This document shows, piece after piece, positions 36,933-62,972 of a stretch of 64,000 nucleotides of DNA. Source of the DNA: an uncultured virus (IMG/VR IMGVR_UViG_3300025313_000005) (taxonomy: Duplodnaviria; Heunggongvirae; Uroviricota; Caudoviricetes); IMG/VR virus record IMGVR_UViG_3300025313_000005. One strand, written 5' to 3'. The notes under the pieces were generated by a model that searched no databases, was not told the DNA's origin, and saw nothing but the letters and a program-made list of their open reading frames with translations. The translations under genes and the position numbers were made by a program. How positions within the stretch are numbered: position 1 is the first letter of the stretch; each line of letters begins with the position of its first letter.

Positions 36933-37129
36933 CTAGACTGTCTAATAATTGATGATTATCTACGGGTACTGTAGCGACTGATGCTAGAGTGCAAACAACT
37001 TCGTCTGCGGTTAATCTGGTTGCTCTAGTATTGCCGTAGTCATACGCATCATTAAGACATGGAAATTCAAGTGTCTCACTTATAATATACCACTCTTCTG
37101 TTGTGTCTATTTCCCAAGTAATTACATAT

Positions 37130-37384
37130 TTATCCATGTGATTCAGTATTATATATATCAAGTAATGCTCTACATATGTCTTCTGGTATACAAAACTGAA
37201 ACATATTATCTGCTCCTATTATATCTTTTTCTGTTGCTGTGTGATTTTTGATATGATCTGGATAGATATATATATCACGAAGTTCATTTTTTAGATTATG
37301 TTGTATAACTGTTGCCGCATTTATTCTCAAGCTATGCGGTATTATAATTGGGGTAGTAATGGTTACTCTTGTAGCTTTATGCAT
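37130..37384 (-). CDS. C-terminal-box family protein
   Basis: ends CIPEDICRALLDIYNTESHG. Confidence 0.55.
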   Translation of the reverse strand: MHKATRVTITTPIIIPHSLRINAATVIQHNLKNELRDIYIYPDHIKNHTATEKDIIGADNMFQFCIPEDICRALLDIYNTESHG

Positions 37385-37385
37385 A

Positions 37386-37655
37386 CTATATCCCTAAAAG
37401 TATTCTTGCCATATCCGATGGTCCTATATGTTTGGCAGTATCTGGCAATGATACAATATGCAAACTTCCACAACCACATTGATCTGTGCTCATTATTTTT
37501 GTTTTTTTAATTACGATCTTACTGTAATGACTATGATATACCATGTCTGGTTTAATTTTACTACATAGTGTATTTTCATAGTTTAACACTAGATAGCTAC
37601 AATAAGTATTTCCCCACTCATATATTACCTCTGAAACACCATCCATATTATTCAT
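37386..37655 (-). CDS. C-terminal-box family protein
   Basis: ends IGPSDMARILLGI. Confidence 0.6.
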   Translation of the reverse strand: MNNMDGVSEVIYEWGNTYCSYLVLNYENTLCSKIKPDMVYHSHYSKIVIKKTKIMSTDQCGCGSLHIVSLPDTAKHIGPSDMARILLGI

Positions 37656-38155
37656 TTAATTATAGGTGGTATAACAATACCATCTCTCCACCATTGATAG
37701 GCTGGATCTTCTATATTCCTAAGAACATATTCTGCCCACCTAATATCGTGTTTGGCTCCATACTTCTTAAGATACTCTAGCTGATGTGTGAGACATACTT
37801 TCTCACCAGCTAAACCATACCATGGCTTCCCCTTATCCCTAAGGCGAAGATGCCATGCTTCATGGAGTAATACTGAAGCTAACCACGAACTAGACATATC
37901 TTTAATAGGGTGTTCTTTTAAATAGAATATTGCCTTATCTCCCCTTACCTCTGAGCGCTTGATGTTTGCGCTATAAATAACTTTTCTTAAGTAGATAAGG
38001 GTATCGGTATACCCCTGTGATATTAATGTGTTGTAGGCTCTATTAATTGCAAATGTAGCATCGTTATCTTGAGAAACAATCTCTAGATTAGAAGTTGCGT
38101 ATGTATATAAATTAAGCATAACCATAAATAAGATAACTAACCAAAATTTCTTCAT
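37652..38155 (-). CDS. exported zincin-like metallopeptidase
   Basis: signal peptide; LLHEAWH (HExxH) followed by a downstream Glu. Confidence 0.6.
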   Translation of the reverse strand: MKKFWLVILFMVMLNLYTYATSNLEIVSQDNDATFAINRAYNTLISQGYTDTLIYLRKVIYSANIKRSEVRGDKAIFYLKEHPIKDMSSSWLASVLLHEAWHLRLRDKGKPWYGLAGEKVCLTHQLEYLKKYGAKHDIRWAEYVLRNIEDPAYQWWRDGIVIPPIIK

Positions 38156-38619
38156 GGCTTATTAATATAGAATGAATATGATATCTTTTCTTGCAGCATA
38201 TCTGAAAGTTCATTTCGACTGATTAATCCTATCTCTACAGCATTACGTACCTTGCTCTCGTCTATATTGACTGTAGTAGTGGTACAGGCATCAAATATGA
38301 CTTGACCTTTTTTCATTAATATTTCTTTAGCTACCTCTACATTAAATGTAATTAGGTGGCGAGCTTCTTTCTTGAGAACTAAATCAGATCTTATTTCAAA
38401 ATACTTATTCTTCTTAGTATCTTCTCTACCAAATTGTTCTGCTGCTATAAGCAATGACTTCTTAAGTTCATCTATTCTAGCTTCAAGTAATTTCTTCTGA
38501 CCACCCAATTCCACATATTCCTCAGCCATTAGCGTTAACTCAGCTGAAGGTGTTGGTATAGATATGAATGGGTTCTTTTTAGTAAGTTTAGTTGTTGGTG
38601 GTGACTTTGCTTTAGGCAT
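38152..38619 (-). CDS. phage hypothetical coiled-coil protein
   Basis: 155 aa; overlaps the def stop codon. Confidence 0.55.
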   Translation of the reverse strand: MPKAKSPPTTKLTKKNPFISIPTPSAELTLMAEEYVELGGQKKLLEARIDELKKSLLIAAEQFGREDTKKNKYFEIRSDLVLKKEARHLITFNVEVAKEILMKKGQVIFDACTTTTVNIDESKVRNAVEIGLISRNELSDMLQEKISYSFYINKP

Positions 38620-39103
38620 GATTATCTTCCTCTCGGATAATTAATTTACCACTTATAGCTAATGTTATACCCTTTAGATGATCTATTTCATGCTGTATTA
38701 TAACAGCTGACATGCCATCAAAAAACTGTCTGGTATGCTTACTTTGTTTGTTATAGTACCCAACTTCTATTTGCTTAAACCTTTTTACTTGATATTGTTC
38801 TCCTGGGAATGATAGACATCCCTCTGTGGATTCAAACTCATCTTGCATACTATATATCTTAGGATTAATTAATTCATAATACTTATCTTTGTGTTTAAAG
38901 ATAATAACTTGTAATAATACTCCCACTTGTGAAGCAGCTAGGCCTATACCACCATTTTCATCACATATCTTTATCATATATTGTAGTAGAGCGTGTATAT
39001 TGGTATCGGCAGGATTAACTACTTTCTTAGATATTCTATCTAGAATAGAATTACCCTTAAATCTTAATTGTCCTCCTAGCATCCTAAGAATCCACTTCGC
39101 CAA
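38612..39103 (-). CDS. def: peptide deformylase
   Basis: GIGLAASQVG, EGCLSFPG and QHEIDHLKG. Confidence 0.95.
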   Translation of the reverse strand: MAKWILRMLGGQLRFKGNSILDRISKKVVNPADTNIHALLQYMIKICDENGGIGLAASQVGVLLQVIIFKHKDKYYELINPKIYSMQDEFESTEGCLSFPGEQYQVKRFKQIEVGYYNKQSKHTRQFFDGMSAVIIQHEIDHLKGITLAISGKLIIREEDNHA

Positions 39104-39836
39104 GACTTAACAGCCTCTACCACAACCTTATTCATACGTTGGTAAGTTAACTTACCATACAATTGATTTTTACTATTATTAAACAGATGAATTAGTGATG
39201 AACTATTATTTATATTAATATCAAAATTACTTGATGGTAAATTATCTAAATCTCTTTCACTTATATGATTGAAGATTTCTTCTGTAGCTTGATCTGCTCC
39301 TCTAAATATACGCACCCTATCTCGTCTAATCTCTTCCTCTGTATGGAGTATGACCCTTGTTAGGTTGTGATTATTGGCAAACTCTATCTCATTCTTAAAC
39401 TATTGGCAAACTCTATCTCATTCTTAAACCTACAGTCAGATATTACATACATTATATTATTGTTGATTGATCTACTAAGTTGTAGTTTCAAATGTTCTAT
39501 CCAGATATTAGAATTAATACTTCTTAGTTGTACGCCTAGATCTTGGAGAAATTCTCTTGGTTTTCTGCCAGGAATAAGAGGATGTTTATCGTGACACCTA
39601 TGTATTGCTGCTTCCATGATTTTAACATCTGCTTCTGAGTACCCCAGCTCATAACAATCACGCATAAAGATAAGTATGTTGGTGTGATCTGTAAGTGTCT
39701 TTAGTTTATCTGCAAACGCAATTTGCTCACCAACATATTCACCATTAGTTAAGAGTGGTATAATACTACAATAATATGCAGCTAATAAGTCTTTACCTGT
39801 GCACATCTTACCTGAAATAGATATACCTCTAATCAT
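39076..39836 (-). pseudogene. deoxynucleoside monophosphate kinase frameshifted by a 29 bp tandem duplication
   Basis: GKMCTGKD, AFADKLK, REFLQDLG and ISDCRFKNE in the 5' part, HISERDLD in the 3' part; duplication at 39372-39400 / 39401-39429. Confidence 0.85.
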
Positions 39837-40135
39837 CTTACCTCCGCGCCATTGTTAATTTTTAGTAGTTTAATCAATGAATTCTTCACGTTCAGGAATC
39901 TCATGTGTGGTTGTGTTATTTACATAGTTGCGTAATCGCAGAGCTAGCAAAGCTATCTCTTCCGCTTTCTCTAGGACTGTTTCCTCTACACGCTTATGCA
40001 TCTTATCAGGCATAACAGCTAAGTAGAGAGATATTATATCAGCAACTAATTCCGCTTCTGTTTTACTTAATGGAAATGCGAAATCGTTAATCATTTTAAC
40101 CTCCTATTATGTATACTTATATACACTAAACAAAG

Positions 40136-40164
40136 ACGAACCTGTCTTTAATTGACAGGTTCGT
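40136..40164. promoter_or_regulatory. intergenic hairpin
   Basis: ACGAACCTGTC-TTTAATT-GACAGGTTCGT. Confidence 0.5.
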
Positions 40165-40269
40165 TGAATTTGTGTCAATTATTCAAAACCTCTTGGTCGT
40201 TTGGATGTCATACCTGGGAACTCGGATGGATAAGTTGGTCCTTGTCCAGGAAAGGGGCTACCACACTGA

Positions 40270-40614
40270 CTATTTCCTTTTGGGCTTTTTCTTTTTGCCT
40301 TTCCCTTGGAATTCTTTGATGTAGGTCGAGATGGCTTGCTCGATTTTACCATAATCCATATCCTCCTCTTGTAATTCTTTTATTCTATTCTCAAATTTTG
40401 AGACTTCAATAAAATCATTCAGACTCATAATATCCTTAGATTCATTACAATCCATACATGCTAAAGCGTAATTGCTTATGGTGCTTTCTCCACCTATTGC
40501 TTCTGGAACTATATGGTCTATAGTTAGTTCATCCACATTAAATTCGTTAAGGCAATACCAACAGAGGTTCCCATACTTCTTTACCATTCTCTTCTTGTAT
40601 CGCCTTAGTGACAT
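40270..40614 (-). CDS. HNH endonuclease
   Basis: CWYC...TIDHIVP..IGG.....N...ACMDCN..K. Confidence 0.9.
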   Translation of the reverse strand: MSLRRYKKRMVKKYGNLCWYCLNEFNVDELTIDHIVPEAIGGESTISNYALACMDCNESKDIMSLNDFIEVSKFENRIKELQEEDMDYGKIEQAISTYIKEFQGKGKKKKPKRK

Positions 40615-40617
40615 AAG

Positions 40618-43600
40618 CTAGGTTAATATCATAGTTAATGTAGGTACTCGCACTATATCATTAGCGAATACAACCCTTTGATCACTACTGTCTTTTTCAT
40701 TTCCATATGTATATATAATATCATTTACCTCAACTTCATTCCAAACCTTAGATTTCATGGCATAACCAAATGCATAGACCTGTACTGGTGAAGTAGATGT
40801 TTCTATAACCACTTTATGATATGGTTTATTTGTTTTACTTGTTTGATTTAGTAATTTCTTAGTTACTATGCCTGTTGCTATAGCTGGTCTAGCGGGCTTC
40901 GGCACTATCCCCAAGTATGGTATCATACATAATTCATATTGCTGTACAATAAGTTGTTTAATAGGCTGTATTGTTGGTCCAACATCTATTAGGGCTTGAC
41001 GCTTATATTTAACTGTTTCATTAAGTATAAGGAATTGGTGCATTAATAAATCTCTTTGACCAAATTTATCAAATGCACCAGCATATATTAGGTTATGTAT
41101 TGTTTGCTTTGTTATGCCCGAACCAAACCTACCCTTTCCCTTACCTCTTGGTGTAGATGCTGTAAGTGCTCGTGTTTTCTCTAGAAACTCATCGAAGGAA
41201 CCGTAGGGTCTATGTTTTTCTATCTCACGCACAGCTGCTACACCTACGTTAGGTAGGGCCCGTAAGCCGTATTGTATATATTTAGTGCCTTGAACTGGAT
41301 CAAATCCACTGAGAGAATCATTGATATCAGGAGATAGTATAACTAACCCACTATCTCTACAGTCATCAAGAAGTTCTTTGAGTTTTTCTCTATCTGTACC
41401 GCCCTCTGCTTCTACTGATATAAGTGCTGACATATATTCTGCTGGAAAATTAGCTTTTAAATATGCGGTAGTGTATGATAGGTGTCCATATCCAACAGCA
41501 TGACCCTTACCAAAACCATAACCTGCGAAGTAGGCTACCTTTTCAAACAGATCGTTAGCTACTTCCTTACTATAGTTATTAGCTATGCAACCGTTTACAA
41601 ATTTTTCTTTTTCTTCTTGAACTTGAGACTTGATTTTCTTACCTAAGATTTTCCTTAGCTTATCTGCCTCAAGCCAATCATACCCTGCAGCTTCTACTGC
41701 AATTTGCAGTGCCTGGTCTTGAAATAATATAATTCCATAAGTTTCTTCCAGTATTGGTTGTAATCTAGGATCTGGATAATCTACTTCCTCCTTACCGTTT
41801 TTACGAGCTATGAAGCGCTCATGTGCTTTTGCTTGGAGTATAGCTGTTCTACCAAGTGATACAGTAGCTACAACATCAAAGAAGCATGTAGGTTTAACAT
41901 CGCGTAAGAGATTACGCATCAATCGTGTACCAAGTTGGAATACTCCCTTTGTCTTACCTGATCTAAGTAGCGCATATGTGCGCTCATCATCTAGGGGAAA
42001 CTGAGTATTAACAGTTATGTCTTCTCTATCTATAAACTCTATGGTTTTTTGCACAACATCCAGTTGATCGATGCGTAATAAATCAAATTTAAGTAGTCCA
42101 GATAGCTCAATTACATTCATATCATACTGAGATATCTTTGTCTCATTGCGGACATATAAGGGAACATGCTCGTGTATGGGATCGGGTGATATAACTACGC
42201 CAGACGCATGTACGCTACCCTGTCTATGTAGTCCTATAAATGACTCTGCTATCTTAAACCACTGTCTGTGACTATCACTCTTTTCACGTAAGTCACGCAG
42301 GTCATTGCTTATTTCACAAGCAGCTTCTAGAGATATAAGGGCTTTGTTGTCTAGATCTGGATCATCAGGTATTAAATCTTTAATAGAATTAACATCTTCT
42401 TTGGATATTACTGTCTCTTTAGAATTAAGTATTCTTGCTGTATCACGTAGCGCTTGACGCGCTCCTACTGTCGCAAATGTACCTATACGTGCAATATTAT
42501 CTTCGCCGTACTTTTGTATTAAATACTTATATACTTTCTCTACACCACTGGTTGAGAAATCAACATCAATATCAGGCAAGGACTTTCGACCTGGAGTTAA
42601 GAATCTCTCAAACATTATATTATGTTCGATAGGATCTATGCTAGTTATACCAGTAAGGAATGCTACTAGACTACCAACTCCCGATCCTCGCCCACTCCCA
42701 ACTGGAACACACGCGCAACGCGCGTAAGAAGTGTAATCTTGAACTAAGAGAAAATAAACACTAAAACCCAGCTGCTTAATCGTATCCAATTCCTTACGAA
42801 GTCTAGTTAAATATAAATTGGTATCTTTATTGTAAGCACTGGTATACTCCATGCACTTATTAATACATAAGTCAGATAGATAATCATCATACCCCTTGTA
42901 TCCTGACGGAACAGGGAACTTAGGCCATAGTGTTTTACCTAGTGGTATCTCAACATTACATTGATCTGCTATTAGTTGTGTAATACTAATTGCCGAATCA
43001 GGTATTGTATCTATGGAGCCGCCAGGACGGAACCAGCATCCCTCTGACCAGTTAACATACTGGCTACTTTCATCTGCATCCTGAGCAAGCATCAGCCATA
43101 TCTTGTGGAGCTCATGATCCTGTTCCTTAACATAGTGGCTATCACATGTTAATACAGCTGGTATGCCTTTTTGCTTAGATGCATCTAAGAGATATTCATT
43201 TACTAGTACTTGATCAGACATATGAAGGTGAGGTTGTAGCTCTAGATAGAATCTGCCTGGGAACTTAGTGGCATACCATTCAATTAATCGATCTGCTTGT
43301 AAGAATTGTCCTGCCAGCACTGCTTTGTTTATGTCACTATTTAAACATCCAGATAGTATTATTAATCCCTCATTATTTTGAGCCAATAAATTTCTATCTA
43401 TACAGGGCTTCTTATAGAAGCCCTCTGTATAGCTACGAGTTGATAGTATTTTAAGATTACGCCAGCCCTCATTATTTTGAGCCAATAAAATTAGGTGACC
43501 TGGTTTCTCATCTTTATCTTTAATTCCTAAATCTTTACGGGTATATGCTTCCATCCCCAAGATAGGCTTAATACCCTCGTCTATGCATTGCTTATAGAAC

Positions 43601-48066: not shown

Positions 48067-48921
48067 CTATATAGTAGTACTACTTAGATAATCTAGGAGA
48101 TCAAGTCCCGACTCGGTAATATATGTGTATCCATTTATATTGTTAATACAATCAATGTCTTCTAATTTATCTAGAATAAGTTGATTATCTGTGGTGGATG
48201 CCATTAGAGACAACTGTATACCAGTTAAGCTATTATCGCTAAGCTTGCTTAGTACAGCAATATATTTATTTATCTTGTGTTGCTTATCATAAAGAAGGTG
48301 TTCAGCTAAATTAACAACCTGATCTGGAATATTGGATTTTTCTGTGTAACTATCAAATAAGTCATTTTTCCAGGGGACATCGTGGTTTTGCGGGAAACTA
48401 TAATCTTCTATACGCTCATAGGCAAACGTAGTTTGAGGTTTTACACTAACGGTTCTTAGTATAACTGACCTTATTTGTTCGCTATCAACAAATGCTGGAC
48501 TAATAATTATATTTATTTTCTTATATCCCTTGCCTCCGCAAGGCAAGTCTACCTGTTCAGTTGCTTCTATATTCCCCATATGATTAGTTACTATGGCAAA
48601 TTTGTAATTAGGTAAAACAGTATCATAGTCCATACTGGAAAATTTAGCGGACATAGTATGATGAGAATGTATCATTCCATCCCACTGCCCTTTTTGTTCT
48701 TTTAATAAGCAATCTGCAACTGCAATTTCCTGTTCTGGAAATACTAGTTCGGTAATTTCACGGGATTTATTTACTTTAAATAAAGCAAGTAGCTCTAAGT
48801 CTGGATAAACCTTAGTGGCGTATACCCATTTCTCCCATAGTTTCATTGAGAAATATAGTACATCACTCTGAGCAGATACCCAGTCACAACTTATACATGG
48901 TTTTGTAGCTAATGTCATCAT
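48067..48921 (-). CDS. JAB/MPN (JAMM) metalloprotease, deubiquitinase-like
   Basis: upstream Glu (DLEL) and GMIHSHHTMSAKFSSMD = HxH-x7-S-x2-D. Confidence 0.85.
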   Translation of the reverse strand: MMTLATKPCISCDWVSAQSDVLYFSMKLWEKWVYATKVYPDLELLALFKVNKSREITELVFPEQEIAVADCLLKEQKGQWDGMIHSHHTMSAKFSSMDYDTVLPNYKFAIVTNHMGNIEATEQVDLPCGGKGYKKINIIISPAFVDSEQIRSVILRTVSVKPQTTFAYERIEDYSFPQNHDVPWKNDLFDSYTEKSNIPDQVVNLAEHLLYDKQHKINKYIAVLSKLSDNSLTGIQLSLMASTTDNQLILDKLEDIDCINNINGYTYITESGLDLLDYLSSTTI

Positions 48922-48924
48922 AAA

Positions 48925-49863
48925 TTAATCCTCCGATGTTGTAAAATTAATTTTAAGTTCTCTTATTAGTTCATTAGGAATATCGTCTTCAGTCATCTCG
49001 TCTTTAAAATCTTCAATAATATCGTCTATGAGATTTTGTGGAACATCATGTTTATCCATACGTTCTATATATTTATCAACAACATCTTGAACTCTACTTG
49101 GCAAACTATCAATATCTATATTGTCTAAGTAGCTATCTATTGCGTCATCAAATACCCAACAATCTTCATGGTTACAGTCATCACTGCCATGGTAATCACC
49201 ATCATCAAGTATCTCATCCTTAACATCATCTTTTATCTTATTTAATATTGTTTTCGGTATTAAGGAGGAATTAAACGCAGTTAAAGTACTCATTGGAGCA
49301 GATATAGAAACCTCATTCTCAAACATAGAGTATACAGCAAGTAATCCAGCAAGAGCAGCTTGATAAACCTTTGGTTTATCGCTGTAGTCAGTTCCTTCTT
49401 GATGTTCTTGCTGGGGATCAAAGGTTATTGGTATACCTCTTGTAATTGTAATCCAATCACCGTCATATCCAGCGCGTTGATATTTTATTCGATTGTCTTG
49501 ACAGTAAGTTCTAACTAATCTCTGAATATCTACAGTATCAGTAGCACAAAATACATGTGTAGTATCATTTAATAAAACACTAATGTTATCACTAGATAAA
49601 GCACTAGACATAACGTTTATTGTAAATGCAGGTTTTGTATCGTAAATGGTCTTGCTAAGATATGTTACTTTTTTTGTGTTTCTATCAGTATGTGTTGTAG
49701 GTAATCTTGTAAGATTATTGTCTTCTAATGTATCATAATCAATAAGAGTTAGGTTATTAATACTAGAAAAATGTGAATCTTTCGAAGCTAATGCAAGAAA
49801 GTAAGCAATCCACGATCCAACACCTCCACATCCTATTATTGTTATGTTTGTTGTTTTTACCAT
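48925..49863 (-). CDS. ThiF/MoeB/E1-like adenylyltransferase with an acidic C-terminal extension
   Basis: IIGCGGVGS, IDYDTLEDNNLTR, KV and CATD motifs. Confidence 0.88.
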   Translation of the reverse strand: MVKTTNITIIGCGGVGSWIAYFLALASKDSHFSSINNLTLIDYDTLEDNNLTRLPTTHTDRNTKKVTYLSKTIYDTKPAFTINVMSSALSSDNISVLLNDTTHVFCATDTVDIQRLVRTYCQDNRIKYQRAGYDGDWITITRGIPITFDPQQEHQEGTDYSDKPKVYQAALAGLLAVYSMFENEVSISAPMSTLTAFNSSLIPKTILNKIKDDVKDEILDDGDYHGSDDCNHEDCWVFDDAIDSYLDNIDIDSLPSRVQDVVDKYIERMDKHDVPQNLIDDIIEDFKDEMTEDDIPNELIRELKINFTTSED

Positions 49864-49875
49864 GGTTTAGCCTCC

Positions 49876-50493
49876 TTAAATTAAGACTGCTGTAAGAAAC
49901 TTAGGAATACTTCCTAAAGATATATTTCTTAGATCATCTAATATTTGTGTCCAACTAGATGATAAATCGCAATCATCCCTAAGAGTATGTGCGCTATCTG
50001 TATTATAGATACTTAAAATATTTTCTATGTCAGAAACTCTGTTTTGTAAGTTTTCAGGCTTTGTTGTAAAGACAGTGCTTCCAAAGCAAACCTGATTGGT
50101 ATCTTTATCATAATGAAAAGGCGGAAAATACTCTTTCCAATTATCTGGTGTAATGCCTGGAATAGGCAAAAGCCGTATGCTTACTGGTGGCTCATATATT
50201 ATCATGAGTGGTACTGTTTCTTGCATATGAACTGGAATGTTCCAGGTTACATTATTATGATATATTTTTTTAATAGAAAAGTTTCCAAATGCTATTGAGT
50301 AGATCTGGCTATCCTCAACCTGGTATATACCAGGTTGAGGTAGTGTTATTGTGTTTGTGATGTGATTATTTAAGACTCTCAAACATGTATTGTGCGTCGC
50401 AAGACCGCTTTCTATATCATATCTGTCTTGTTTTTCCTGCTCTTGTACAATAGCATAGAGCGTTTCTACTTCATTATCTTCCAGGTTTAGCAT
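49876..50493 (-). CDS. prokaryotic E2-like (UBC fold) protein
   Basis: PPFHYDKDTNQVCFG (HPN...CL-like) and ILSIYNTDSA (LLxxPNxxSP-like); lies between Ubl and E1. Confidence 0.65.
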   Translation of the reverse strand: MLNLEDNEVETLYAIVQEQEKQDRYDIESGLATHNTCLRVLNNHITNTITLPQPGIYQVEDSQIYSIAFGNFSIKKIYHNNVTWNIPVHMQETVPLMIIYEPPVSIRLLPIPGITPDNWKEYFPPFHYDKDTNQVCFGSTVFTTKPENLQNRVSDIENILSIYNTDSAHTLRDDCDLSSSWTQILDDLRNISLGSIPKFLTAVLI

Positions 50494-50710
50494 ATGTTCT
50501 CAATTCTAGGACATCATCGTGTGCTAGGTCAAGAGGCAGCTCATTCTTATTAACTATTTCACGACCATTAAGGATTACGTCTACGGTAGTAATATTCCTA
50601 GTTTTTAGAGCTTGTTTTAAAGCCTCTAAAAGGGACATGCTCCCGTCATAAGAAATTACCTCTCCATTTATGAGAATCTTTCCTACTTCATTAAAGTCAT
50701 TGATATTCAT
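50474..50710 (-). CDS. ubiquitin-like (beta-grasp) protein
   Basis: 78 aa; SLLEALK helix, VILNGREI, L..DDVLELR and C-terminal KPG-R; AGGAG RBS. Confidence 0.7.
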   Translation of the reverse strand: MNINDFNEVGKILINGEVISYDGSMSLLEALKQALKTRNITTVDVILNGREIVNKNELPLDLAHDDVLELRTYAKPGR

Positions 50711-54119: not shown

Positions 54120-55397
54120 TTAAGTACCCTGCATAATCACACTACTACCCCAAGGAGCAGCTCTATCATGATCTTTAGTATATACCCATAGTACGGGGAA
54201 CTTGGGTTTATCTTGTGGTGCAGTACCACAACCATCTGTAAAATAAACTACACCATCAAAAGATAATCTCTTTTCGGCTATGTAATCAAATGCAGGTCTA
54301 AAATCAGTACCTCCCCTACCTGTAAATTCATGAACTTCTTTACGTTTGAACTTATATACAGCTCCAACCCTTGCATCTGATTCTATAATGGTTAGTTCTG
54401 TACTTTTATATCTTGATATAGTATTGAGCTCGTTTAGGAAAGCTGATAATTGCTTATTGTTTATCGATCCAGATGTATCTATAATAGCACACAGGTTGAG
54501 CTTACGCTCCCTGCAATATCCTGGCGGTAGCTGTAACCTACGATTATAACGTTTGAGCGTATAACGCCTGGTATTATTGCGTGTGCTAGTTACAAATCTA
54601 CGAAGAACTACATTCCAAGGTACTTCACTATTTAATATTCTTCTAATAAGAGATTTAATTTGTCCTGGCAGTTTCCCTTGTGTTTTAATATAAGCTTCTT
54701 GGAGCTCACCTTTTATTATACCTTCATAGTATTTTTTACTTATATCTTTATAATCAGCCATGTCTTCTTCATCTGGAGTACCCCACATGCTATGGTCATC
54801 TATCATCTTTACCTCAGCTTTCCCTCCACCAGGCATTTTTAATTCTCCATCTTGCTCTATTTTCTGACGTAAGAATTGATAGTAAACATTTGCAGAACTA
54901 AACCTAGAAGGAAAGTCATGATACTGCTCAAGAAATCCATCATAAGTTATATTTTCTTTTTCTAAAAAGTTAGATTCCATAAACTCATTAACCACAATAT
55001 CACAAGCAATATTCCATAAAGTATGCTCTAAGACAATGGGTGTTCTTATTGGATGCATCATTATTATGTGTAGAAATTCATGTTCTAAGACTGTCTGTAT
55101 CTGATTCTGATTAAGCGATAAGACATAATGTGGATTAATACATAATATCAGACTTGTCGCACTCATACCTACACCCATTGTTGGGACGTTTTTGGTGCTA
55201 AAGATACGCTTAAACCGCATAAGAAGATAAGCATATAATGCTTTATCTCCTGCAATTATCATGGAAGCAAGAGCGCTAGCAAATACCTGTTCTGCTTTTT
55301 TATACTCTACAGGACTCGCATCTTCCCCACTAGCCCACTTGGGTAGTTCTTTTTTATCTACACTAGCAATACCATTATCAGCAATATCATTAGACAC
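54120..55397 (-). CDS. metallopeptidase-VWA fusion (DUF2201-like), MoxR partner
   Basis: VLEHEFLH, WNIACD..VN, DDHSMW, IDTSGSI (MIDAS), GRGGTDF and YFTDG; likely GTG start at 55397. Confidence 0.85.
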   Translation of the reverse strand: MSNDIADNGIASVDKKELPKWASGEDASPVEYKKAEQVFASALASMIIAGDKALYAYLLMRFKRIFSTKNVPTMGVGMSATSLILCINPHYVLSLNQNQIQTVLEHEFLHIIMMHPIRTPIVLEHTLWNIACDIVVNEFMESNFLEKENITYDGFLEQYHDFPSRFSSANVYYQFLRQKIEQDGELKMPGGGKAEVKMIDDHSMWGTPDEEDMADYKDISKKYYEGIIKGELQEAYIKTQGKLPGQIKSLIRRILNSEVPWNVVLRRFVTSTRNNTRRYTLKRYNRRLQLPPGYCRERKLNLCAIIDTSGSINNKQLSAFLNELNTISRYKSTELTIIESDARVGAVYKFKRKEVHEFTGRGGTDFRPAFDYIAEKRLSFDGVVYFTDGCGTAPQDKPKFPVLWVYTKDHDRAAPWGSSVIMQGT

Positions 55398-56556
55398 TTG
55401 CTGTTGCCTTCTTCTTTTCTTTCTCTTCCAACTCCAACTCTTGTTCAAGTAGTGTATCAAAGATATCTATCAGATGATGTTCGTTAGCAACATCTCTTGT
55501 CCTAACCACTTGACTAAACACTTCTTTATTTCTACATATTAATTTAAACAGATTAAACAATCTTTGGTTACAACCTATTGCTCTCATAAAACTTACAACT
55601 AAATCAAGAGGAAGATCTATTATTAATAAACATATACTCTCGACAAAGCTAGACTGAGTAATGTTAGAGTCTATATACTTGTCAAGATACCTAGCCGTGT
55701 CATCTAATCCACGAGACAATACATCCATCTGTTGGTTTTGAATAAGCTTCTGAATTTTAGTGCGAATTTTTTTATAGTTTTCTACAAGAAGTTTAGAATC
55801 TAATGGTTGGTATTTGTCAATAACAAATCTCTTATATGATAGTCCACCAGCCTCACCGATATTGCCCATAGCAATATCTAGAAATAAATCATAATCTTTC
55901 TTCTCAATGAATTTATCCAACTCAACTAACTTAAGTGCATTGCTTAAGCGTTCCCAACCTCTACGAGTTGGATAGGCTTGCCCCTTACTTGGGTCAAGAT
56001 ATATATTATCTTGCTTAATAAATTCGCAGACAGATTTGCATATATTATTTTTCTCTGCCCAACTCAACCACTCTTCAACTGTTGGTTCATATATTACTTT
56101 CCAGAACCTATCTTGCAACGCTATATCTAATGGAGATACATCATATCCATCTATCTCAGGATTTATAGCTGAGACAACAATACAATCTAGAGGCAATGTA
56201 TGTGTATGTAATTTGAAATCTCTCACTAATTGAAAGATAGCTTGTTTTACATCCTGGGTACCACGATTTAATTCATCTAAAAAGATAACAACTTTCTCGC
56301 CCTCTTTAGGCCACCAACTTGGGGGAGCCCAATAGGTATAACCGTCTTTAACTATAGGCATACCTATTAAATCAGCCACTTCTTGCTGCCCTAATCTTAA
56401 ATCTGCCAAACGATAACCTAATTCGCTTGCGACTTCAGCAACAACAGCCGACTTCCCTATTCCATGCACCCCTTCTATCAGTAATGATACTCGATTACCG
56501 TTACCACTGTTCTGAATAAGTTTTCTTAGTACCTCTTGTAGCTGTAAAGTATTCAC
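55390..56556 (-). CDS. MoxR-type AAA+ ATPase
   Basis: GVHGIGKS, DLIGMP, IFLDELNR, AINP, ALQDRF and TRRGWE. Confidence 0.88.
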   Translation of the reverse strand: MNTLQLQEVLRKLIQNSGNGNRVSLLIEGVHGIGKSAVVAEVASELGYRLADLRLGQQEVADLIGMPIVKDGYTYWAPPSWWPKEGEKVVIFLDELNRGTQDVKQAIFQLVRDFKLHTHTLPLDCIVVSAINPEIDGYDVSPLDIALQDRFWKVIYEPTVEEWLSWAEKNNICKSVCEFIKQDNIYLDPSKGQAYPTRRGWERLSNALKLVELDKFIEKKDYDLFLDIAMGNIGEAGGLSYKRFVIDKYQPLDSKLLVENYKKIRTKIQKLIQNQQMDVLSRGLDDTARYLDKYIDSNITQSSFVESICLLIIDLPLDLVVSFMRAIGCNQRLFNLFKLICRNKEVFSQVVRTRDVANEHHLIDIFDTLLEQELELEEKEKKKATASV

Positions 56557-56618: not shown

Positions 56619-57605
56619 CTACACATATTGTTTTCTCATATAAGCCAGATCAGCCTTACCGAGCTCTTCTCCTAATACATCTAGTTCTATTAACCTTATT
56701 TTATGTCCCATAATCTCACATACATGTGTATTATCTTTAAACCAACGTATGGTCTTAGGATTAATATCTTTTAATCTACTTGCTTCATCTTGATATTGCT
56801 CTCTTGCTTTAAACATATGAGCTGGACATGTATTTTCCTCTAAAGACATTTGCCTTAATTTGACAATACTTAAATACCTACTTTCGTCTTCCCCTCTCGG
56901 ACGTGACATTGTTTGTGGCTCGCCTTGTGTTCTAACATATCCCCTATCTTTCTGTACTCTGGAATATCCATGGCTTTGATCGGAGTTCCATGTTGCATTA
57001 ATATTATTAGTTATCTCTTTATCTACAAACGCACCAGTTACAGCACACCGCCATAAAGGAAGATGTGGTTGATCTTTTATGTCCTGAACACTTCTCTCGT
57101 AGGGTTGATTTCTAAAGCTGTTTTCTTTATCTCTACATGCGAAGGAGCAATTACTACAATTACGATATTGACTTACGTTATTATTACGTCTGTAAGCAGG
57201 CCACTCTTCTCCATACAATCCTTTAACAACCAGTCTAGGTACTCCATAGAATAATACGGGCGATATATTTCTTCCTAGATTATAACCATCTAGGATATTT
57301 ATCTGAGGAATACCTGGCTGATAAGTGCGCAGAGCTTGCTGTATCTTACTTAGAATATCACCATCTACCCCTTGCTTTGCAAGGGTAGATGTTATGTGTT
57401 GATTGGTTTCTTGCGTATTACCTAATGCCCAACTAGCCCAAAATCTATAACCAATTGTTTGGGTAGTATCCTTAATCTTATATATCCACCCCCTATAAGA
57501 TATACTATTGCTTTCATCTACTATGAAATCAAACTGAGCAATACGTTCATTTCCACTCTTGTTTGTGACGCTACACTTCTGTGCTCTTACATACATGAAC
57601 ATCAC
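56619..57605 (-). CDS. Cys-containing hypothetical protein upstream of the MoxR-VWA pair
   Basis: 328 aa; CSNC...C...CPAH; GAGGTG RBS. Confidence 0.6.
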   Translation of the reverse strand: MMFMYVRAQKCSVTNKSGNERIAQFDFIVDESNSISYRGWIYKIKDTTQTIGYRFWASWALGNTQETNQHITSTLAKQGVDGDILSKIQQALRTYQPGIPQINILDGYNLGRNISPVLFYGVPRLVVKGLYGEEWPAYRRNNNVSQYRNCSNCSFACRDKENSFRNQPYERSVQDIKDQPHLPLWRCAVTGAFVDKEITNNINATWNSDQSHGYSRVQKDRGYVRTQGEPQTMSRPRGEDESRYLSIVKLRQMSLEENTCPAHMFKAREQYQDEASRLKDINPKTIRWFKDNTHVCEIMGHKIRLIELDVLGEELGKADLAYMRKQYV

Positions 57606-57620: not shown

Positions 57621-57716
57621 AGCTTGCGAAGCAAGCTTCGTTTACTTAGACCACCTGAAAAGCAAGACGTCAAGGCTTTAAGCGAAGCGTGCCTTGACGT
57701 TGAAGCTGCAGGTGGT
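57621..57716. other. structured intergenic element, copy 1
   Basis: AGCTTGC-GAA-GCAAGCT hairpin; ACCACCTG...CAGGTGGT enclosing ACGTCAAGGC...GCCTTGACGT. Confidence 0.8.
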
Positions 57717-57738
57717 TGCAGTTTATTTTAATTTTTCT

Positions 57739-57999
57739 TTATATATTTAATAATATTCTTGCTAGATTACTAGGCGTTGCAGGTGTAGGTGAAACATTAT
57801 TGAAATCAGAATATATCCCTGGTTGATGGACTTTCTTTATAACAGATGGTGTAATATAAGTAATTGAATTTGCTTTTAAGAACTGATTATTATCAAATCT
57901 ACTATCATATATCTCGTAAACTTTACTTCTTAGTAAGTATGATATACCCATAATATTGATAGTTAAATATATTTCATACGGAAGTAATTGATTAGACAT
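57739..57999 (-). CDS. C-terminal-box family protein
   Basis: ends ATPSNLARILLNI. Confidence 0.6.
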   Translation of the reverse strand: MSNQLLPYEIYLTINIMGISYLLRSKVYEIYDSRFDNNQFLKANSITYITPSVIKKVHQPGIYSDFNNVSPTPATPSNLARILLNI

Positions 58000-58394
58000 G
58001 TGTTTCTTCTTCTTATGAAATACCTAGTAATAACATAGACACATTTCTCTCTTAGCTCCTGCCAATGTCTGGATATGCTTTTGGGGCTGCAGGATAATTA
58101 GTACCTCTTGTAGGTCCATCAGCACCTACCAATGAATTAATTCTACTATGGAAGTGAGGTCTATTGCTACCAAATATCTTAGGGAACATAGACGTACTAA
58201 ATTCTTGCACGGTTATTATCTCACTAGCAAAGAGAGTTTGTGCTTGAGCCCTAGCATCAATTAAGCTTAATGCATCTATTATAAAATCATCGTAGCCACC
58301 TCTACGGTGGCTTATGTGTACTAAAAATTGAGGCATACTATCTCCTTCTTATGGGTATTCCTAGTAATGCTGAAACTAATATATATAGAAATAC

Positions 58395-58769
58395 TCATAG
58401 TGGTCTCAGATGTAATTCTATTTTATCTTCGTACGTATTAATATCACAGTTAGAACACGAACATATAATGAGAAACCCCCTACCATTTTCTGGAAGTTCT
58501 CCATCAATAGAACATAGGCTATCGATTGGTAGACCCTGAGATATTATCCTTACGCCATCGGCCTTATCCACAACTAAATCAAACATATGAGATGGAGTGT
58601 GTAGTGCGTTAATGGCCGCTTCATGGAAAGCCACGGCTAATTGAATACCAAATAATCTACATACAGCCCTTCTAAGGGCTCTTATTTGTAGTCTATCTGA
58701 TGCATCATATGAACCCTCATGCCTATTGTTCAATTTAATATCATGGCGTAAACCAGTGAGTAATCCCAT
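58395..58769 (-). CDS. RsbW/SpoIIAB-like anti-sigma factor (HATPase_c fold)
   Basis: LAVAFHEAAINA (N-box) and ENGRGFLII (G2 box). Confidence 0.6.
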   Translation of the reverse strand: MGLLTGLRHDIKLNNRHEGSYDASDRLQIRALRRAVCRLFGIQLAVAFHEAAINALHTPSHMFDLVVDKADGVRIISQGLPIDSLCSIDGELPENGRGFLIICSCSNCDINTYEDKIELHLRPL

Positions 58770-58774
58770 GTCAG

Positions 58775-58996
58775 CTACCTCCTTAAGTTAAGTAACATAA
58801 TAACCATGTGTGATAGAGTACAAAAACACTCCTCGTCCCTATTAAGAGGGTCTGCATGTTTTATTGGTGTATCCTCCTGAATTCCATGAGGATTTATCGT
58901 GATAAATCTACAAAAATTATTCTCATAACATATATGTAGGTAGTTTATTGTACACTTCATTGAATGATATACGGCTACAGGGTTCATATTATTCAT
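58775..58996 (-). CDS. C-terminal-box family protein (divergent)
   Basis: ends CTLSHMVIMLLNLRR. Confidence 0.45.
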   Translation of the reverse strand: MNNMNPVAVYHSMKCTINYLHICYENNFCRFITINPHGIQEDTPIKHADPLNRDEECFCTLSHMVIMLLNLRR

Positions 58997-59594
58997 TGCT
59001 TTAATTCATATGTGCATTCGGCATATGTTCTGGTTTATGTCCTGTTTCTTCTTTGTATCTCTCCACAATATTATCTACTACCTCTTGTGCTTCTTCGTGG
59101 GTATCAAATATAACTTGAAATATCTTATTTGTATCACCATCTTCTACTCGAACGATCCATTTATTAGTCATAACACTATAACCTAATTGTAATCTAGCTG
59201 GCATAAACTTCTCCTTCTTATATTAAATTTAGTATATGTTTAGTAATTGTTTAACCAGTATATATAGCGATGCCAAATGCTTCAATTCCTCTCTCTATAC
59301 TCTCTTAGTCATAGGCTTTATAGATAGTAAGGCATGGTCCCGCAGGAGGAACCAATACCAATTGAGTATCCCTCCTATGTTTCATCTTAACAGGTATAAA
59401 TATCTGCCTATCTTGTAACCATGTAGCTATTATAGATGTGCTTAATCTATACCTACCTTTTTGAATTATATTTTTAGGTTTACGTCTAAGACTTAGTTTA
59501 TTCTTCTGCATGTAAAATATGGTTCTCCTCTTCTTCGTCGTAAATAGAGCCATCTATGGCGCTTTATCCACGGTCCTATCGTGGAGGGGAATAG

Positions 59595-59855
59595 CTAAAT
59601 ATTTAATAGTGTTTTACAAAACGAACTTAAACAAGCGATATCATCTTCATATAATAAATTGATAAGCGCAGTACCTGATGCAGATGTTATAATATTAGGA
59701 TAAACATAATATGATTTATAGTTTCTACACCAACCGACGCTAGACATTGAGCCCTCATATATAACCATTATGCCTTCAGAATTAAAAGGCTTAGTAGTAG
59801 GATCGGGTAAGTTAAGGATCTTATTTATTCTTTCCATAGAAGATAGCCACAGCAT
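59595..59855 (-). CDS. C-terminal-box family protein
   Basis: ends ACLSSFCKTLLNI. Confidence 0.5.
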   Translation of the reverse strand: MLWLSSMERINKILNLPDPTTKPFNSEGIMVIYEGSMSSVGWCRNYKSYYVYPNIITSASGTALINLLYEDDIACLSSFCKTLLNI

Positions 59856-60050
59856 GGTTTGCCATAGTGTGGTGGTTTCTTATAATGTCTAAAATAGTAA
59901 TCATAGTTGTATCCCTTTGGATAGTTACGAAAGTACATCTCCTCTTTAGCATATGTATGTGTTGCTTCATAAAGAACTATTAAGGCGCGTGGTATAAAAT
60001 TCCTTATCCAAAAATTTATTAGCATTGTGGGGTTCAAATACAAATACGCT

Positions 60051-60965
60051 TTATATGTGAACATTTACTTGTCCGTCCTTAACTACTAATTCGTCATATG
60101 TTTTAGTTTGTAATCCCTTATGTAATACTAGTGTAGCCATAGATACTACATCACAATATTTAATGGTAGCTACAGGATAATAATTAATATTTAATTCCTT
60201 AGCCATATCTTTAATAACCCGCCATACCGCATCGATTTGATCTTCTGCTTTATCTTTTTTATCTTTAATATATTTAGTTGTTCCCCTAGCTCGCATCATC
60301 GTAATAGCTAATTGTCCGCCATGATGAAGCTTACTTAATGCTAGCTCAATTGTTTTACCTTCTTCCGCCTTGACCTTGCCACAATAATCCAAATAAATCA
60401 GATCGTATTTGTTTTTTGTATCCCATAAGAACTCATAGATATTCTCATGATGTACGTGAACATTGTTCTTATAGGCTGCTCGTGCTTTAACAGCAGCACA
60501 AACATAGCTGTGTATGTTGTGTTCTATTGAGTCTATTTGTGTACCAGGATTATACTTTAATATCTCTGGTATATCATGTAGGTATGGTCCACCTAGAATA
60601 AGTATTTTAGGCTGTTTCTTACTATATAGACTTCGCTTGGCATATCTATACACAAGCTGTCTATTGATAGCTTTATTAATACCATCAAAAGGTAGTTGTT
60701 GCTTAATCCTATCTATTAAATCACTAGATTTATTTAGAGTAATAACATTAGCAGTACGATAACCTTTATTAAATTGAATTAACCCAAGCTTATGCATACG
60801 TTGAATGAATCCACGCGCTTCAACGTAACTCTTATATCTACGTAACTCTGGTACAGATCTATAGAGGTCCGCAATAGAGTCTACTTGTTTGTGTTGTTCC
60901 AAATAGTCAATAGTAGCCTGCATGCGGTCTACTGCTTTCTTGCGAGTAATAGATGGATTACTCAT
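60051..60965 (-). CDS. winged-HTH plus SAM-dependent methyltransferase-like fusion
   Basis: N-terminal MHKLGLIQF wHTH-like segment; ILILGG, DSIE and YDLIYLDYCG Rossmann motifs. Confidence 0.6.
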   Translation of the reverse strand: MSNPSITRKKAVDRMQATIDYLEQHKQVDSIADLYRSVPELRRYKSYVEARGFIQRMHKLGLIQFNKGYRTANVITLNKSSDLIDRIKQQLPFDGINKAINRQLVYRYAKRSLYSKKQPKILILGGPYLHDIPEILKYNPGTQIDSIEHNIHSYVCAAVKARAAYKNNVHVHHENIYEFLWDTKNKYDLIYLDYCGKVKAEEGKTIELALSKLHHGGQLAITMMRARGTTKYIKDKKDKAEDQIDAVWRVIKDMAKELNINYYPVATIKYCDVVSMATLVLHKGLQTKTYDELVVKDGQVNVHI

Positions 60966-61024
60966 AGGAAGATCCTTCTTTCTCTAGATTGCTTCTTTAA
61001 TCTTACTTATATTTATACTAGTAG

Positions 61025-61222
61025 TCATATTCCTAGTAATAATTTACATACCATATGAGGTGTTGCAATATCTTCACTAGAACATATCTTACTTTGATCA
61101 TATTTTTGTGATCGTGATATGATAGCATTTCTAAATATACCAACGAGGAATAAAACTTCACCCGTATCATTTCCAGTTTTATCAATGTGAACATTAGCAT
61201 AACCAAATATCCACTTCTCCAT
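61025..61222 (-). CDS. C-terminal-box family protein
   Basis: ends ATPHMVCKLLLGI. Confidence 0.6.
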   Translation of the reverse strand: MEKWIFGYANVHIDKTGNDTGEVLFLVGIFRNAIISRSQKYDQSKICSSEDIATPHMVCKLLLGI

Positions 61223-61829
61223 TTCGGTTATTAGTTACATTTAATAACCCATCAGTCTTCTCATAAGTGACTCACAGAAGGCAAGATTACCATCTCTACA
61301 CATCTGTAATTTCATAGAGAACTCATAGTCATTCATGGGTGGTTGTGTATATGATGAGTTAGCTTCGTAATATGTACGATTAGGTACATAGCCTGGTTGA
61401 ATAGGTATTGTTTGCAGGTTATATGGTCTAGGGTATGGCTCATAATACTGTTGTTGATAGATTGGATAAGGTTGGCATCTATGCTGTCCTTGTATAGCCT
61501 GAGTTAAAGTTAGAATACCAATAGCTAGGTTAATTGGATTAATCTGATCTGCATAAGATACCCTAACTGGTATTAAACATATGGCTAATAACAATATACA
61601 CACTGTTTTATTTGCTGTTCTCATTGAATAACCCCATTCCTGTTAAAAATGACATAGGAAATGCTATAGCACAACTTAGAATGATTCCCAATAACATATC
61701 AATATTATGATCTATATAATACAAAGTACTAGCTGCGCCGTATTGGAACACTGTTATTATTAGTATATTAATTAATACTTTTAATATTATATTTAACTTC
61801 ATAATTACCTCCACTTTTATTGACTACGC

Positions 61830-62060
61830 TTATATCCCCAGTAGTATTCGTGCAATAACAGACGGTGTAGACTTTTCATAATTATCTCTTGGACGCATTT
61901 TTCTGACTCGTTGTTTTGATGAATCAATATACGTAGAAAAAACCAATATATCAGAAGATATATTGGCTTGTAATTTTAATATCAAAGTTGCCGCATGTTT
62001 TGCACGTAATGTACGTTTTCTATCATCAAATATTTCAATGTTTTGATTAGTCATTTTCAT
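61830..62060 (-). CDS. C-terminal-box family protein
   Basis: ends STPSVIARILLGI. Confidence 0.6.
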   Translation of the reverse strand: MKMTNQNIEIFDDRKRTLRAKHAATLILKLQANISSDILVFSTYIDSSKQRVRKMRPRDNYEKSTPSVIARILLGI

Positions 62061-62329
62061 ACATCCAACTATAGAATACAGGATCTATGCCAGAATTGCA
62101 TATTCTATTCTCTAATATCTTAACTAGACACGTAGAACTACACGTGTATATGTTATCCGACTTTAATTTAAAGAGAGCGAGTTCCTTACAATACCCACAT
62201 ATCTCTTTGTTGGGAACTATAGTTTCTACTAAATTATGAAAGATCATATACTTCATAATATGTTACACCCCTAATAATTGACGTACTAGTGTACTTGAAC
62301 TAGCTACTCGATCTTTATAAAGAGGAGGC

Positions 62330-62361
62330 GCAGGAGCGCCCCCTCTATTAGGCGCTCCTGC
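62330..62361. terminator. GC-rich hairpin, probable terminator
   Basis: GCAGGAGCGCC-N10-GGCGCTCCTGC. Confidence 0.5.
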
Positions 62362-62385
62362 TATAGGAGGGAAAACAATGTAGTT

Positions 62386-62853
62386 TTACTTATGATTACG
62401 TTCTTCAGCTTTAGTTAACTGATCAATAGGATCTACTATCTGAATATACTCTCTTGTATCCGTTATCATACCACGCTCTATTACTTCACTGGGAGTTGTA
62501 TATGCTTGTTTAAGTTGACTAAAGAATCCAAGCTTACGTATCTGTACTTGAGGACGCATGCGCTCATTAAATGGTTCACTAATACTTATCATATAATCTA
62601 TCTCGTAGGTATTACCATTCTTACCTGTTTTGGGTATACTTACTTTTTGATTTAGTATATTAATTATAACATCTGTCTTTTTGCTCTTAAAGCTCTTATT
62701 GCGTTCACCTGTGGTGAACTTGGCTATAACCCCAGCTAATGCCACCTTAAGAGGTATGGTATCAAATACACGCAGTTCTAATTTGCGCGGAGAATCAACA
62801 GCACCTTGAACCTGACTTGCTACTTCTTCTGTAATTATTTCTTTTATTATCAT
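62386..62853 (-). CDS. hypothetical protein downstream of structured element copy 2
   Basis: AAGGA RBS; 155 aa ORF. Confidence 0.6.
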   Translation of the reverse strand: MIIKEIITEEVASQVQGAVDSPRKLELRVFDTIPLKVALAGVIAKFTTGERNKSFKSKKTDVIINILNQKVSIPKTGKNGNTYEIDYMISISEPFNERMRPQVQIRKLGFFSQLKQAYTTPSEVIERGMITDTREYIQIVDPIDQLTKAEERNHK

Positions 62854-62881
62854 ATCCTTATGCTCCTTTTAAATTAAGATG

Positions 62882-62972
62882 AGCTTGCGAAGCAAGCTTA
62901 TAAACCCCGCACCACCTGTAACGTGAAGAAGTCAAGGGATGTTTTGTCCCTTGACTTCAAGCGGCAGGTGGT
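62882..62972. other. structured intergenic element, copy 2
   Basis: AGCTTGC-GAA-GCAAGCT hairpin; ACCACCTG...CAGGTGGT enclosing GAAGTCAAGGGA...TCCCTTGACTTC. Confidence 0.8.

Follow-up and report, generated by a model that had tools for sequence, protein, structure and literature searches.

Structured elements with a paired -35 box ahead of minus-strand genes of an uncultured tailed phage: candidate single-strand promoters

Two structured elements at the locus

The stretch analyzed here (64,000 bases of the uncultured virus IMGVR_UViG_3300025313_000005, Caudoviricetes; referred to below as the window) carries two copies of a structured element, c1 (57621-57716) and c2 (62882-62972), each lying just ahead of a gene on the minus strand. 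A first-pass annotation described both as a small hairpin followed by a 12-base spacer and an outer stem; this common architecture was confirmed at the same coordinates and far exceeds what is expected by chance. The parts of the two copies and the genes behind them are as follows.

57621..57637, plus strand: small hairpin of c1, a 7-base-pair stem with a GAA triloop
57638..57649, plus strand: spacer of c1, 12 bases, kept in length but not in sequence
57650..57716, plus strand: long hairpin of c1, with an 8-base-pair outer stem (57650-57657/57709-57716), internal loops, a 10-base-pair inner stem (57667-57676/57691-57700) and a 14-base loop containing a second GCGAAGC (57682-57688)
57694..57699, plus strand: -35-like hexamer of c1, TTGACG, located in the 3' arm 17 bases before the end of the outer stem
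56619..57596, minus strand: gene behind c1, 325 residues, no family, middle part rich in cysteine
62882..62898, plus strand: small hairpin of c2, identical to that of c1; on the plus strand a G-T pair and further A-T pairs can lengthen it
62899..62910, plus strand: spacer of c2, 12 bases, between the small hairpin and the outer stem
62911..62972, plus strand: long hairpin of c2, with an 8-base-pair outer stem (62911-62918/62965-62972), a perfect 12-base-pair inner stem (62928-62939/62947-62958) and a 7-base loop that resembles the loops of e4 and e5 (see below)
62951..62956, plus strand: -35-like hexamer of c2, TTGACT, located in the 3' arm 16 bases before the end of the outer stem
62386..62853, minus strand: gene behind c2, 155 residues, no family, a paralog (31% identity) of the 145-residue gene behind e5

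Exactly two matches to the 17-base small hairpin exist in the 129,959-base record; allowing up to three mismatches adds only the same sites on the opposite strand. The inner stems of c1 and c2 differ by two double-sided changes, as had been claimed. Both elements surpassed 200 shuffles on either strand, whether folded as DNA or as RNA: the z-scores of the plus strand were -4.73 and -6.07 (DNA) and -4.96 and -6.62 (RNA), with none of the 200 shuffles folding as well, and those of the minus (sense) strand, folded as RNA, were -4.78 and -5.53. The GCGAAGC motif does lie on the template strand of the genes behind, i.e. the plus strand, and it is this strand that folds somewhat better. The elements had also been placed 15-30 bases upstream of minus-strand gene starts. 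The actual gaps (24 bases in c1, counted from ATG 57596, and 28 bases in c2) fall within this range, whereas the c1 start itself is more probably ATG 57596 than GTG 57605: the GTG overlaps the ribosome-binding site, and the database protein P0001 (325 residues) and its ortholog P0002 start alike.

A lineage-specific family of five copies

Homologue searches added two copies in the source phage (e4 and e5) and one in a relative (r1), bringing the known copies to five, four of them in the source phage. The additional copies are listed below.

L061:1365-1465: r1, in a relative whose ortholog of the 325-residue gene is 77% identical, at the same place as c1
L068, about 9800-10035, outside the window: e4, ahead of a 121-residue gene
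L068:14077-14187, outside the window: e5, ahead of the 145-residue paralog of the gene behind c2

All five copies precede a ribosome-binding site on the opposite strand, and those of the source phage stand before gene blocks in the arm that is likely expressed early. In r1 the outer stem carries a T-A to C-G change on both arms with respect to c1 and c2, the spacer is again 12 bases long, and the small hairpin has a GGA triloop, closed by T-A, on a stem that is longer than and different from that of c1 and c2. Across c1, c2 and r1 there are three double-sided stem changes, and no pair of the core is broken. The e4 copy is the center of an inverted duplication that includes the ribosome-binding site and the gene start, and it folds as a hairpin of ~240 bases with a 13-by-10-base bubble after 17 pairs (z -11.5).

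A covariance model of c1, c2 and r1, an approach suggested by the first-pass annotation, recovered e5, on the template strand only (E 1e-5, a rough value); the significant covariation also looked for is unattainable with three alignable sequences. The core pattern GTCAAG-N8-24-CTTGAC occurs four times in about 180.7 kb, compared with a mean of 0.05 (maximum 1) in 60 simulated sequences. In IMG/VR the exact hairpin-plus-stem pattern was found in one stretch, which belongs to the same phage, and a relaxed 5'-arm pattern in 48 stretches, 47 of them without a complementary arm; the pattern was found in 61 GTDB stretches, none of which scored with the covariance model. BLAST matched the elements to none of 50,697 phage and 72,556 plasmid records, and pattern and model alike failed to find one in any of five cultured relatives (no positive control genome was run alongside). 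Loci for the distant homolog P0010 and for the 155-residue family were sought as well and none was obtained, and Logan contigs of four low-share runs yielded the known relative's variant alone. Rfam gave no match in the window at or above the gathering threshold, and Rfam 15 gave sub-threshold matches alone in L058, L061 and L068, including one to a yeast snoRNA model over e4 (32.9 of 120 bits) that we take as chance. Overall, the copies form a real, lineage-specific family of structured cis-elements. The earlier suggestion of a new cis-regulatory motif stands to the extent that the element is conserved and structured, lacks an Rfam match and has further homologues.

A paired -35 box without a -10 box

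All five copies have just one sequence in common: in the inner stem CTTGAC, the -35 box of sigma-70 promoters, pairs with GTCAAG. This box, TTGAC(G/T/A), is paired, and thus reconstituted, in five of five copies, the hexamers reading TTGACG, TTGACT, TTGACT, TTGACA and TTGACA. The two half-sites lie 18, 13, 19, 13 and 13 bases apart; this variation makes a single dimer bound to linear DNA at fixed spacing unlikely, while a hairpin leaves the distance free. Counted from the hexamer up to where the stem ends, the 3' arm has 17, 16, 17 and 17 bases in c1, c2, r1 and e4, compared with 18, 19, 19 and 27 bases in the 5' arm, whose extra bases loop out; in e5 both arms have 19 bases, or about 17 by eye once the bulges are looped out. 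A near-constant 3' arm next to a variable 5' arm suggests that the element is oriented on the plus strand and would fire towards the minus-strand genes. Between the stem and the small hairpin the template strand has 12, 12, 12 and about 10 bases predicted to be unpaired (in c1, c2 and r1 the length of this spacer is kept and its sequence is not), and in e4 a bubble is followed by long pairing across the ribosome-binding site and the first codons. A TGnT ending 15-19 bases past the hexamer in the 3' arm of all five copies was noticed post hoc and is mirrored by the perfect outer stem on the other strand.

A paired -35 box could also belong to a promoter or operator working in double-stranded DNA, namely a back-to-back promoter pair (or its relic) used with a phage sigma-like factor or activator that combines -35 recognition with a different -10 sequence. 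The elements do share with divergent sigma-70 phage promoters an inverted CTTGAC pair 13-19 bases apart, and such arrangements are abundant: inverted TTGACA pairs occur in an estimated 1,400 or so stored IMG/VR stretches, and they are mostly divergent promoters in other viruses. Among 111 distinct viral pairs, drawn from 120 stretches in 6 of 64 database parts, a -10 box at 16-18 bases was present in 70, and on both strands in 50. In the phage itself, a leader and gene start have visibly been duplicated in inverted orientation at e4, e5 has TG-A-TAGATT 21 bases past its -35 box on the gene strand, and a 326-residue protein shows a weak match to sigma-70 region 4 (E 1.9e-4, below the cut-off). 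On the other hand, a TAnnnT -10 box at 16-18 bases was found on neither strand of any of the five copies, nor do the copies have any other hexamer in common at that distance on either strand, and unlike divergent promoter pairs the elements have extended, covarying stems. The half-site spacing shifts by half a helical turn, and both the double-sided changes seen in the outer stem and the small hairpin and the bias of e4 towards wobble pairs (9 to 0, see below) point to selection on the fold. We therefore regard a duplex promoter as quite unlikely.

The template strand is the better folder

In all five copies the template strand is lower in energy as DNA (by 1.1, 3.5, 1.6, 1.3 and 6.0 kcal/mol) and also folds better as RNA (by 13 kcal/mol in e4). 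When the arms are aligned without regard to strand, mismatches that are G-T on the template strand outnumber those that are A-C by 14 to 4 (P 0.03), with e4 alone contributing 9 to 0; the arm of e4 is T-rich (28 T, 15 C), which by a calculation made by hand reduces the significance of its bias to about 0.02. The wobble bias is thus real in e4 and no more than suggestive elsewhere. A bias towards the template strand does not separate single-stranded DNA from antisense RNA.

These data bear on two explanations at the RNA level. According to the first, the element is an RNA leader on the gene strand: a long early transcript would be processed (in the manner of RNase III) or attenuated at the long hairpin, and its new 5' end, just in front of the ribosome-binding site, would be protected by the small hairpin. 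Early mRNAs of T7 and SP82/SPO1 carry RNase III sites in which a long interrupted hairpin stands ahead of ribosome-binding sites. It speaks for a leader that every copy occupies an intergenic gap on the gene strand, that the sense strand too folds far better than its shuffles, that the small hairpin with a U-rich run scored as terminator-like on the minus strand, and that three copies precede related or possibly related small proteins, which would allow autoregulation. However, the sense RNA is the poorer folder in five of five copies, the mismatches of e4 pair on the antisense strand only, and a leader leaves unexplained why a -35 box and a 3' arm of near-constant length (16-17 bases) are kept on the other strand. 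The phage elements differ from the T7, SP82 and SPO1 sites in that their non-coding strand is the better folder and their conserved bases form a promoter box. This makes a leader function unlikely in our view.

The second is an antisense decoy, i.e. a plus-strand transcript that, like 6S RNA, sequesters the host sigma-70 polymerase or pairs with the leader of the gene. The better folding of the plus strand as RNA in all five copies would agree with it, as would the layout of e4, which fits the 6S architecture (a long stem with a central bubble). Yet no Rfam 6S match was obtained, no strong plus-strand promoter is directed into c1 or c2, a base-specific -35 box is a rule for reading DNA, and a decoy need not precede a ribosome-binding site. 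We consider the decoy highly improbable.

A possible mimic of an opened promoter

An open promoter complex is duplex from -35 to about -12, melted into a bubble up to about +1, and duplex again downstream. The fold predicted for the template strand has this layout. Our preferred interpretation, to which we give an even chance, is that the elements are promoters of the Frpo/ssi kind, active as single strands or extruded hairpins and read by the host RNA polymerase; the RNA leader and the duplex promoter or relic are its chief competitors. It takes up the single-strand or cruciform promoter option that the first-pass annotation had listed among others, now with a sigma-70 -35 box as the conserved core.

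The plus strand, the template of the genes behind, would fold into a mimic of an already opened promoter. Sigma region 4 would bind the paired -35 box, and the unpaired stretch would replace the melted -11 to +1 bubble and, as a stand-in for it, would make a canonical -10 box dispensable; the small hairpin (in e4, the long-range pairing) would serve as the downstream duplex. Transcription would begin near the first base of the small hairpin, and the polymerase would then move to lower coordinates, making the mRNA of the gene behind. The predicted starts, both on the minus strand, lie near 57637 in c1, where the spacer would be the unpaired template (-12 to -1), and near 62898 in c2. With such a start the mRNA would open with a protective stem-loop, the small hairpin of c1 thus being, by prediction, both the downstream duplex on the template strand and the 5'-terminal stem-loop of the transcript. 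Since a -10 box at 16-18 bases is absent from both strands, the site should be silent in ordinary double-stranded DNA, and the element would be a switch turned on by exposure of the strand and off otherwise. Candidate routes of exposure are resection or unwinding of the incoming genome, replication, and extrusion driven by supercoiling; resection of a right-hand genome end would expose the plus strand.

The phage has ordinary sigma-70-type promoters with this same -35 box (e.g. a perfect TTGACA-16-TATAAT at window position 30045), which makes the host polymerase the likely reader. Strong promoters (11-12 of 12 consensus bases) are missing from the 55 kb of gene strand that hold the four copies and number four in the next 25.9 kb, compared with 1.6 and 0.75, respectively, in simulations.

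Several observations weigh against this interpretation. The scarcity of strong promoters is by itself not significant. Published Frpo-type promoters are described as reconstituting both a -35 and a -10 box, the latter being absent from all five phage copies. No relaxase or coupling protein was found by Pfam or PHROGs, so that a single-stranded phase is not evident, and 22-28 kb separate c1 and c2 from the beginning of the palindrome-rich cluster described below. Since ordinary back-to-back promoters with inverted TTGACA pairs are frequent in viruses, the core of the element could be a relic of such a pair. The covariance model does not recover e4, and the three sequences on which it was built are too few for significant covariation. 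Finally, the strand bias rests chiefly on e4: outside it the ratio of G-T to A-C is 5 to 4 (c1 1:0, c2 3:3, r1 0:1, e5 1:0) and the energy gaps are just 1.1-3.5 kcal/mol, and in a shorter e4 window the two strands are equal as DNA (-42.5 vs -42.8).

Single-strand promoters for the host polymerase are established in conjugative plasmids, whose DNA arrives as one strand. Tailed phages inject duplex DNA; promoters of this kind would therefore imply an unrecognized single-stranded or extruded phase early in infection, and a timer that needs neither a repressor nor a phage polymerase. One can envision a first stage of infection run from single-stranded DNA, in which the early arm would be exposed over tens of kb, the palindromes in the small genes at its start would keep the strand folded, and the open-complex mimics would recruit the host polymerase until the second strand is restored and turns them off. 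We rate this scenario as rather unlikely. If true, a tailed double-stranded DNA phage that lacks its own polymerase would be using zygotic induction in the manner of plasmids. The design itself (a paired -35 box, a fixed unpaired gap, a capping hairpin and no -10 box) would, if it works, be a compact conditional promoter. In the open-access literature, as far as its text was accessible, we found no report of Frpo-like promoters in tailed phages.

Comparison with plasmid single-strand promoters

The Frpo/ssi promoters of F, ColIb-P9 and pESBL are described as stem-loops ahead of operons that are used by the host polymerase on single-stranded DNA and are off after second-strand synthesis; start sites have been mapped for six of them (PMC9849209, PMC12672017, PMC11541004, 10.1101/2023.02.15.528439). 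Like Frpo1 and Frpo2 of the F plasmid, ssi1-3 and the class 2 and 3 single-strand promoters (PMC9849209, PMC12672017, PMC11541004), the phage elements form a long imperfect template-strand hairpin before an operon, have a -35-like box in the stem, are likely read by the host polymerase and are predicted to be off as duplex. They differ in being shorter in four of the five copies (a long stem of about 60-70 bases), in having a separate small hairpin after a 10-12-base gap and no canonical -10 box, and in residing in a tailed double-stranded DNA phage with no relaxase detected and no leading region. No homology was observed either: BLAST gave no match in the F leading region or in PLSDB, and the covariance model finds nothing in the F stretch. 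Two F-plasmid hairpins, identified from their position, likewise show a slight folding preference for the template strand, and neither passes our -35/-10 scan, which must therefore be a blunt instrument. If the phage elements are single-strand promoters, they would work like the Frpo/ssi group but would not be members of it, given the lack of homology, of a -10 box and of a leading region. The 3' arms of the F hairpin ahead of ssb (L195 about 8360-8390) and of c2 (window 62960-62968) have nine bases in common a little past a -35-like hexamer; the match is insignificant by BLAST and probably due to chance.

Frpo transcripts can also prime DNA synthesis (10.64898/2026.01.09.698686), and the phage fold might likewise be mainly an ssi/sso-type initiation site, at which RNA polymerase or a phage primase would prime the second strand, the position ahead of genes being secondary. 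The phage does encode an archaeo-eukaryotic-type primase and a DnaB helicase, and the loops of c1 and r1 hold AGCG(T/A) repeats like the ssoA CS-6 box. But c2 lacks the CS-6-like motif, e4 has it on the opposite strand, and all five copies are closely tied to a ribosome-binding site, so a role primarily in priming seems very doubtful.

The source phage and the search for a polymerase

The source phage is a myovirus of ~180.7 kb related to 0305phi8-36 and MTATph1. Its portal protein is nearest to those of Moorella phage MTATph1 and Bacillus phages Edson, WH1, 0305phi8-36 and KLEB27-3 (~29-35% identity). Records G001 and G002 belong to the same phage and overlap G000. Going by coordinates, they close a circle of ~180.9 kb in which ~164 bases, located within a duplicated stretch, are unseen; the phage is also represented by a metagenome contig of 180,683 bases. 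A duplicated stretch of ~430 bases that includes a DUF4326 gene is found at L068:16507-16940 and at the right end of G000, and assemblies break there. The plus strand carries the virion genes, and the minus strand the small genes of unidentified family followed by the replication genes, as in 0305phi8-36. The latter is described as having two arms, with the virion genes on one strand and the small early and replication genes on the other (PMC2147016), and the source phage has the same plan as 0305phi8-36 and MTATph1. It differs in that 0305phi8-36 has a PF05183-like polymerase, a relaxase operon and a promoter motif of 21 base pairs, whereas neither polymerase nor relaxase was detected in the source phage. 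Besides the primase and the helicase, the phage encodes UvrD, RecA, SSB, Rad52-like and Cas4-like proteins.

An analogy with coliphage N4 had been offered as the mechanism. In N4, extruded single-stranded hairpins serve as promoters, and the virion polymerase is required (PMC13434306). The likeness lies in a template-strand hairpin with a GNA triloop near the gene start, present in c1, c2 and r1 (GGA in the last). It is missing from e4 and e5, r1 differs in its stem and closing pair, the stems of the small hairpins have 7-10 base pairs, and the N4 model leaves unexplained the second, longer stem in which a host -35 box is conserved. Nor was the reader found in the almost closed genome. Scans of the phage proteins (52, 25 and 86 by Pfam, with 12 of 98 listed frames, antisense or overlapping, omitted; 52 and 27 by PHROGs) named no RNA polymerase, relaxase or coupling protein, and PF05183, the family of the 0305phi8-36 polymerase, had no match in G000 or G001. 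Polymerase motifs, sought in all frames of at least 250 codons, were found solely in DnaE and, as DADGD, in a 263-codon frame among the structural genes. There is no frame of ~3,500 codons, the longest (2,373 codons) being tape-measure-like. A candidate might be seen in a virion-module protein of ~1,500 residues, encoded by a frame that spans the start of G000 and without a Pfam or PHROGs match. All in all, reading of the mini-hairpin by a virion RNA polymerase appears extremely improbable.

A palindrome-rich cluster in the probable early arm

Outside the window, L068:7000-12000 (corresponding to L058 about 16200-20000 and beyond) holds small genes that follow strong ribosome-binding sites and have coding sequences tiled with perfect palindromes; there are 42 stems of at least 8 base pairs in 5 kb, compared with 1.1 in simulations and 3.7 per 5 kb in G000. 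The e4 copy sits inside this cluster. No comparable tiling was seen in the examined stretches of 0305phi8-36 and MTATph1. Outer flanks in the cluster have 10 G-T and 13 A-C mismatches, so that the wobble bias of e4 does not extend there; palindromes without such a bias would suit DNA exposed on either strand, or cruciforms. Contig depth over the cluster showed no doubling of the kind that a terminal repeat would give; contigs cannot show termini. The cluster is the best independent hint that this arm is selected for folding; it is not evidence of promoter function.

Several other features were observed in or near this region. Just upstream of e4 (L068:9437-9604), a joint skipping 166 bases occurs in contigs of three of four runs, which may reflect a deletion variant or an assembly effect. 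Two solitary 43-base intergenic repeats (L068:10437-10470 and 11464-11497; 93% identical) have a sub-threshold likeness to CRISPR-DR8 (25.5 and 29.1 bits; threshold 39) and could be RNA anti-CRISPR solitary repeats (PMC10651486) or Cas6 processing sites. An AT-rich imperfect palindrome of about 90 bases (L058:15383-15520) lies beside a promoter-like TTGACA-17-TATATA site ahead of the terminase operon.

Genes behind the elements and minor observations

The gene block behind c1 continues with an AAA ATPase gene (55390-56556) and a DUF2201/VWA gene (54120-55460). The fold model of the 325-residue protein is unusable (pLDDT 34). The 155-residue protein behind c2 obtained no Pfam, PHROG, Atlas or Foldseek assignment (model pLDDT 66), and its identification as an SSB is unsupported. 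Further candidate motifs were rejected as well, namely a hairpin ribozyme (AGAAGUCA is similar but lacks the substrate and loop B motifs), a cUUCGg tetraloop on the mRNA, which is out of register, and a sigma-32 box in e4, which is limited to that one copy.

No tRNA gene was found in the window. By eye, a leader motif of ~35 bases, with a small hairpin before a ribosome-binding site, is common to window positions of about 5465-5505 (minus strand) and to L068 about 7695-7730. A virion-module protein of 1,242 residues (L001:3415-7143), encoded, like that of ~1,500 residues, beside the tape-measure-like gene, has a 3'-5' exonuclease domain at residues 588-750; its gene and two early-arm genes have Ala/Val/Asn-rich tandem repeats in common (G000 about 5800-5980, L068:13219-14088 and L068:14783-16060). 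Five glycosyltransferase genes and a polysaccharide pyruvyl transferase gene lie on the virion strand at G000 about 35000-41700 (L003:7049-13688). On the minus strand of the window (48067-50710), genes for a ThiF (E1-like) protein, a weak Prok-JAB match, and proteins of 205 and 78 residues stand in a row, which suggests a ubiquitin-like module.

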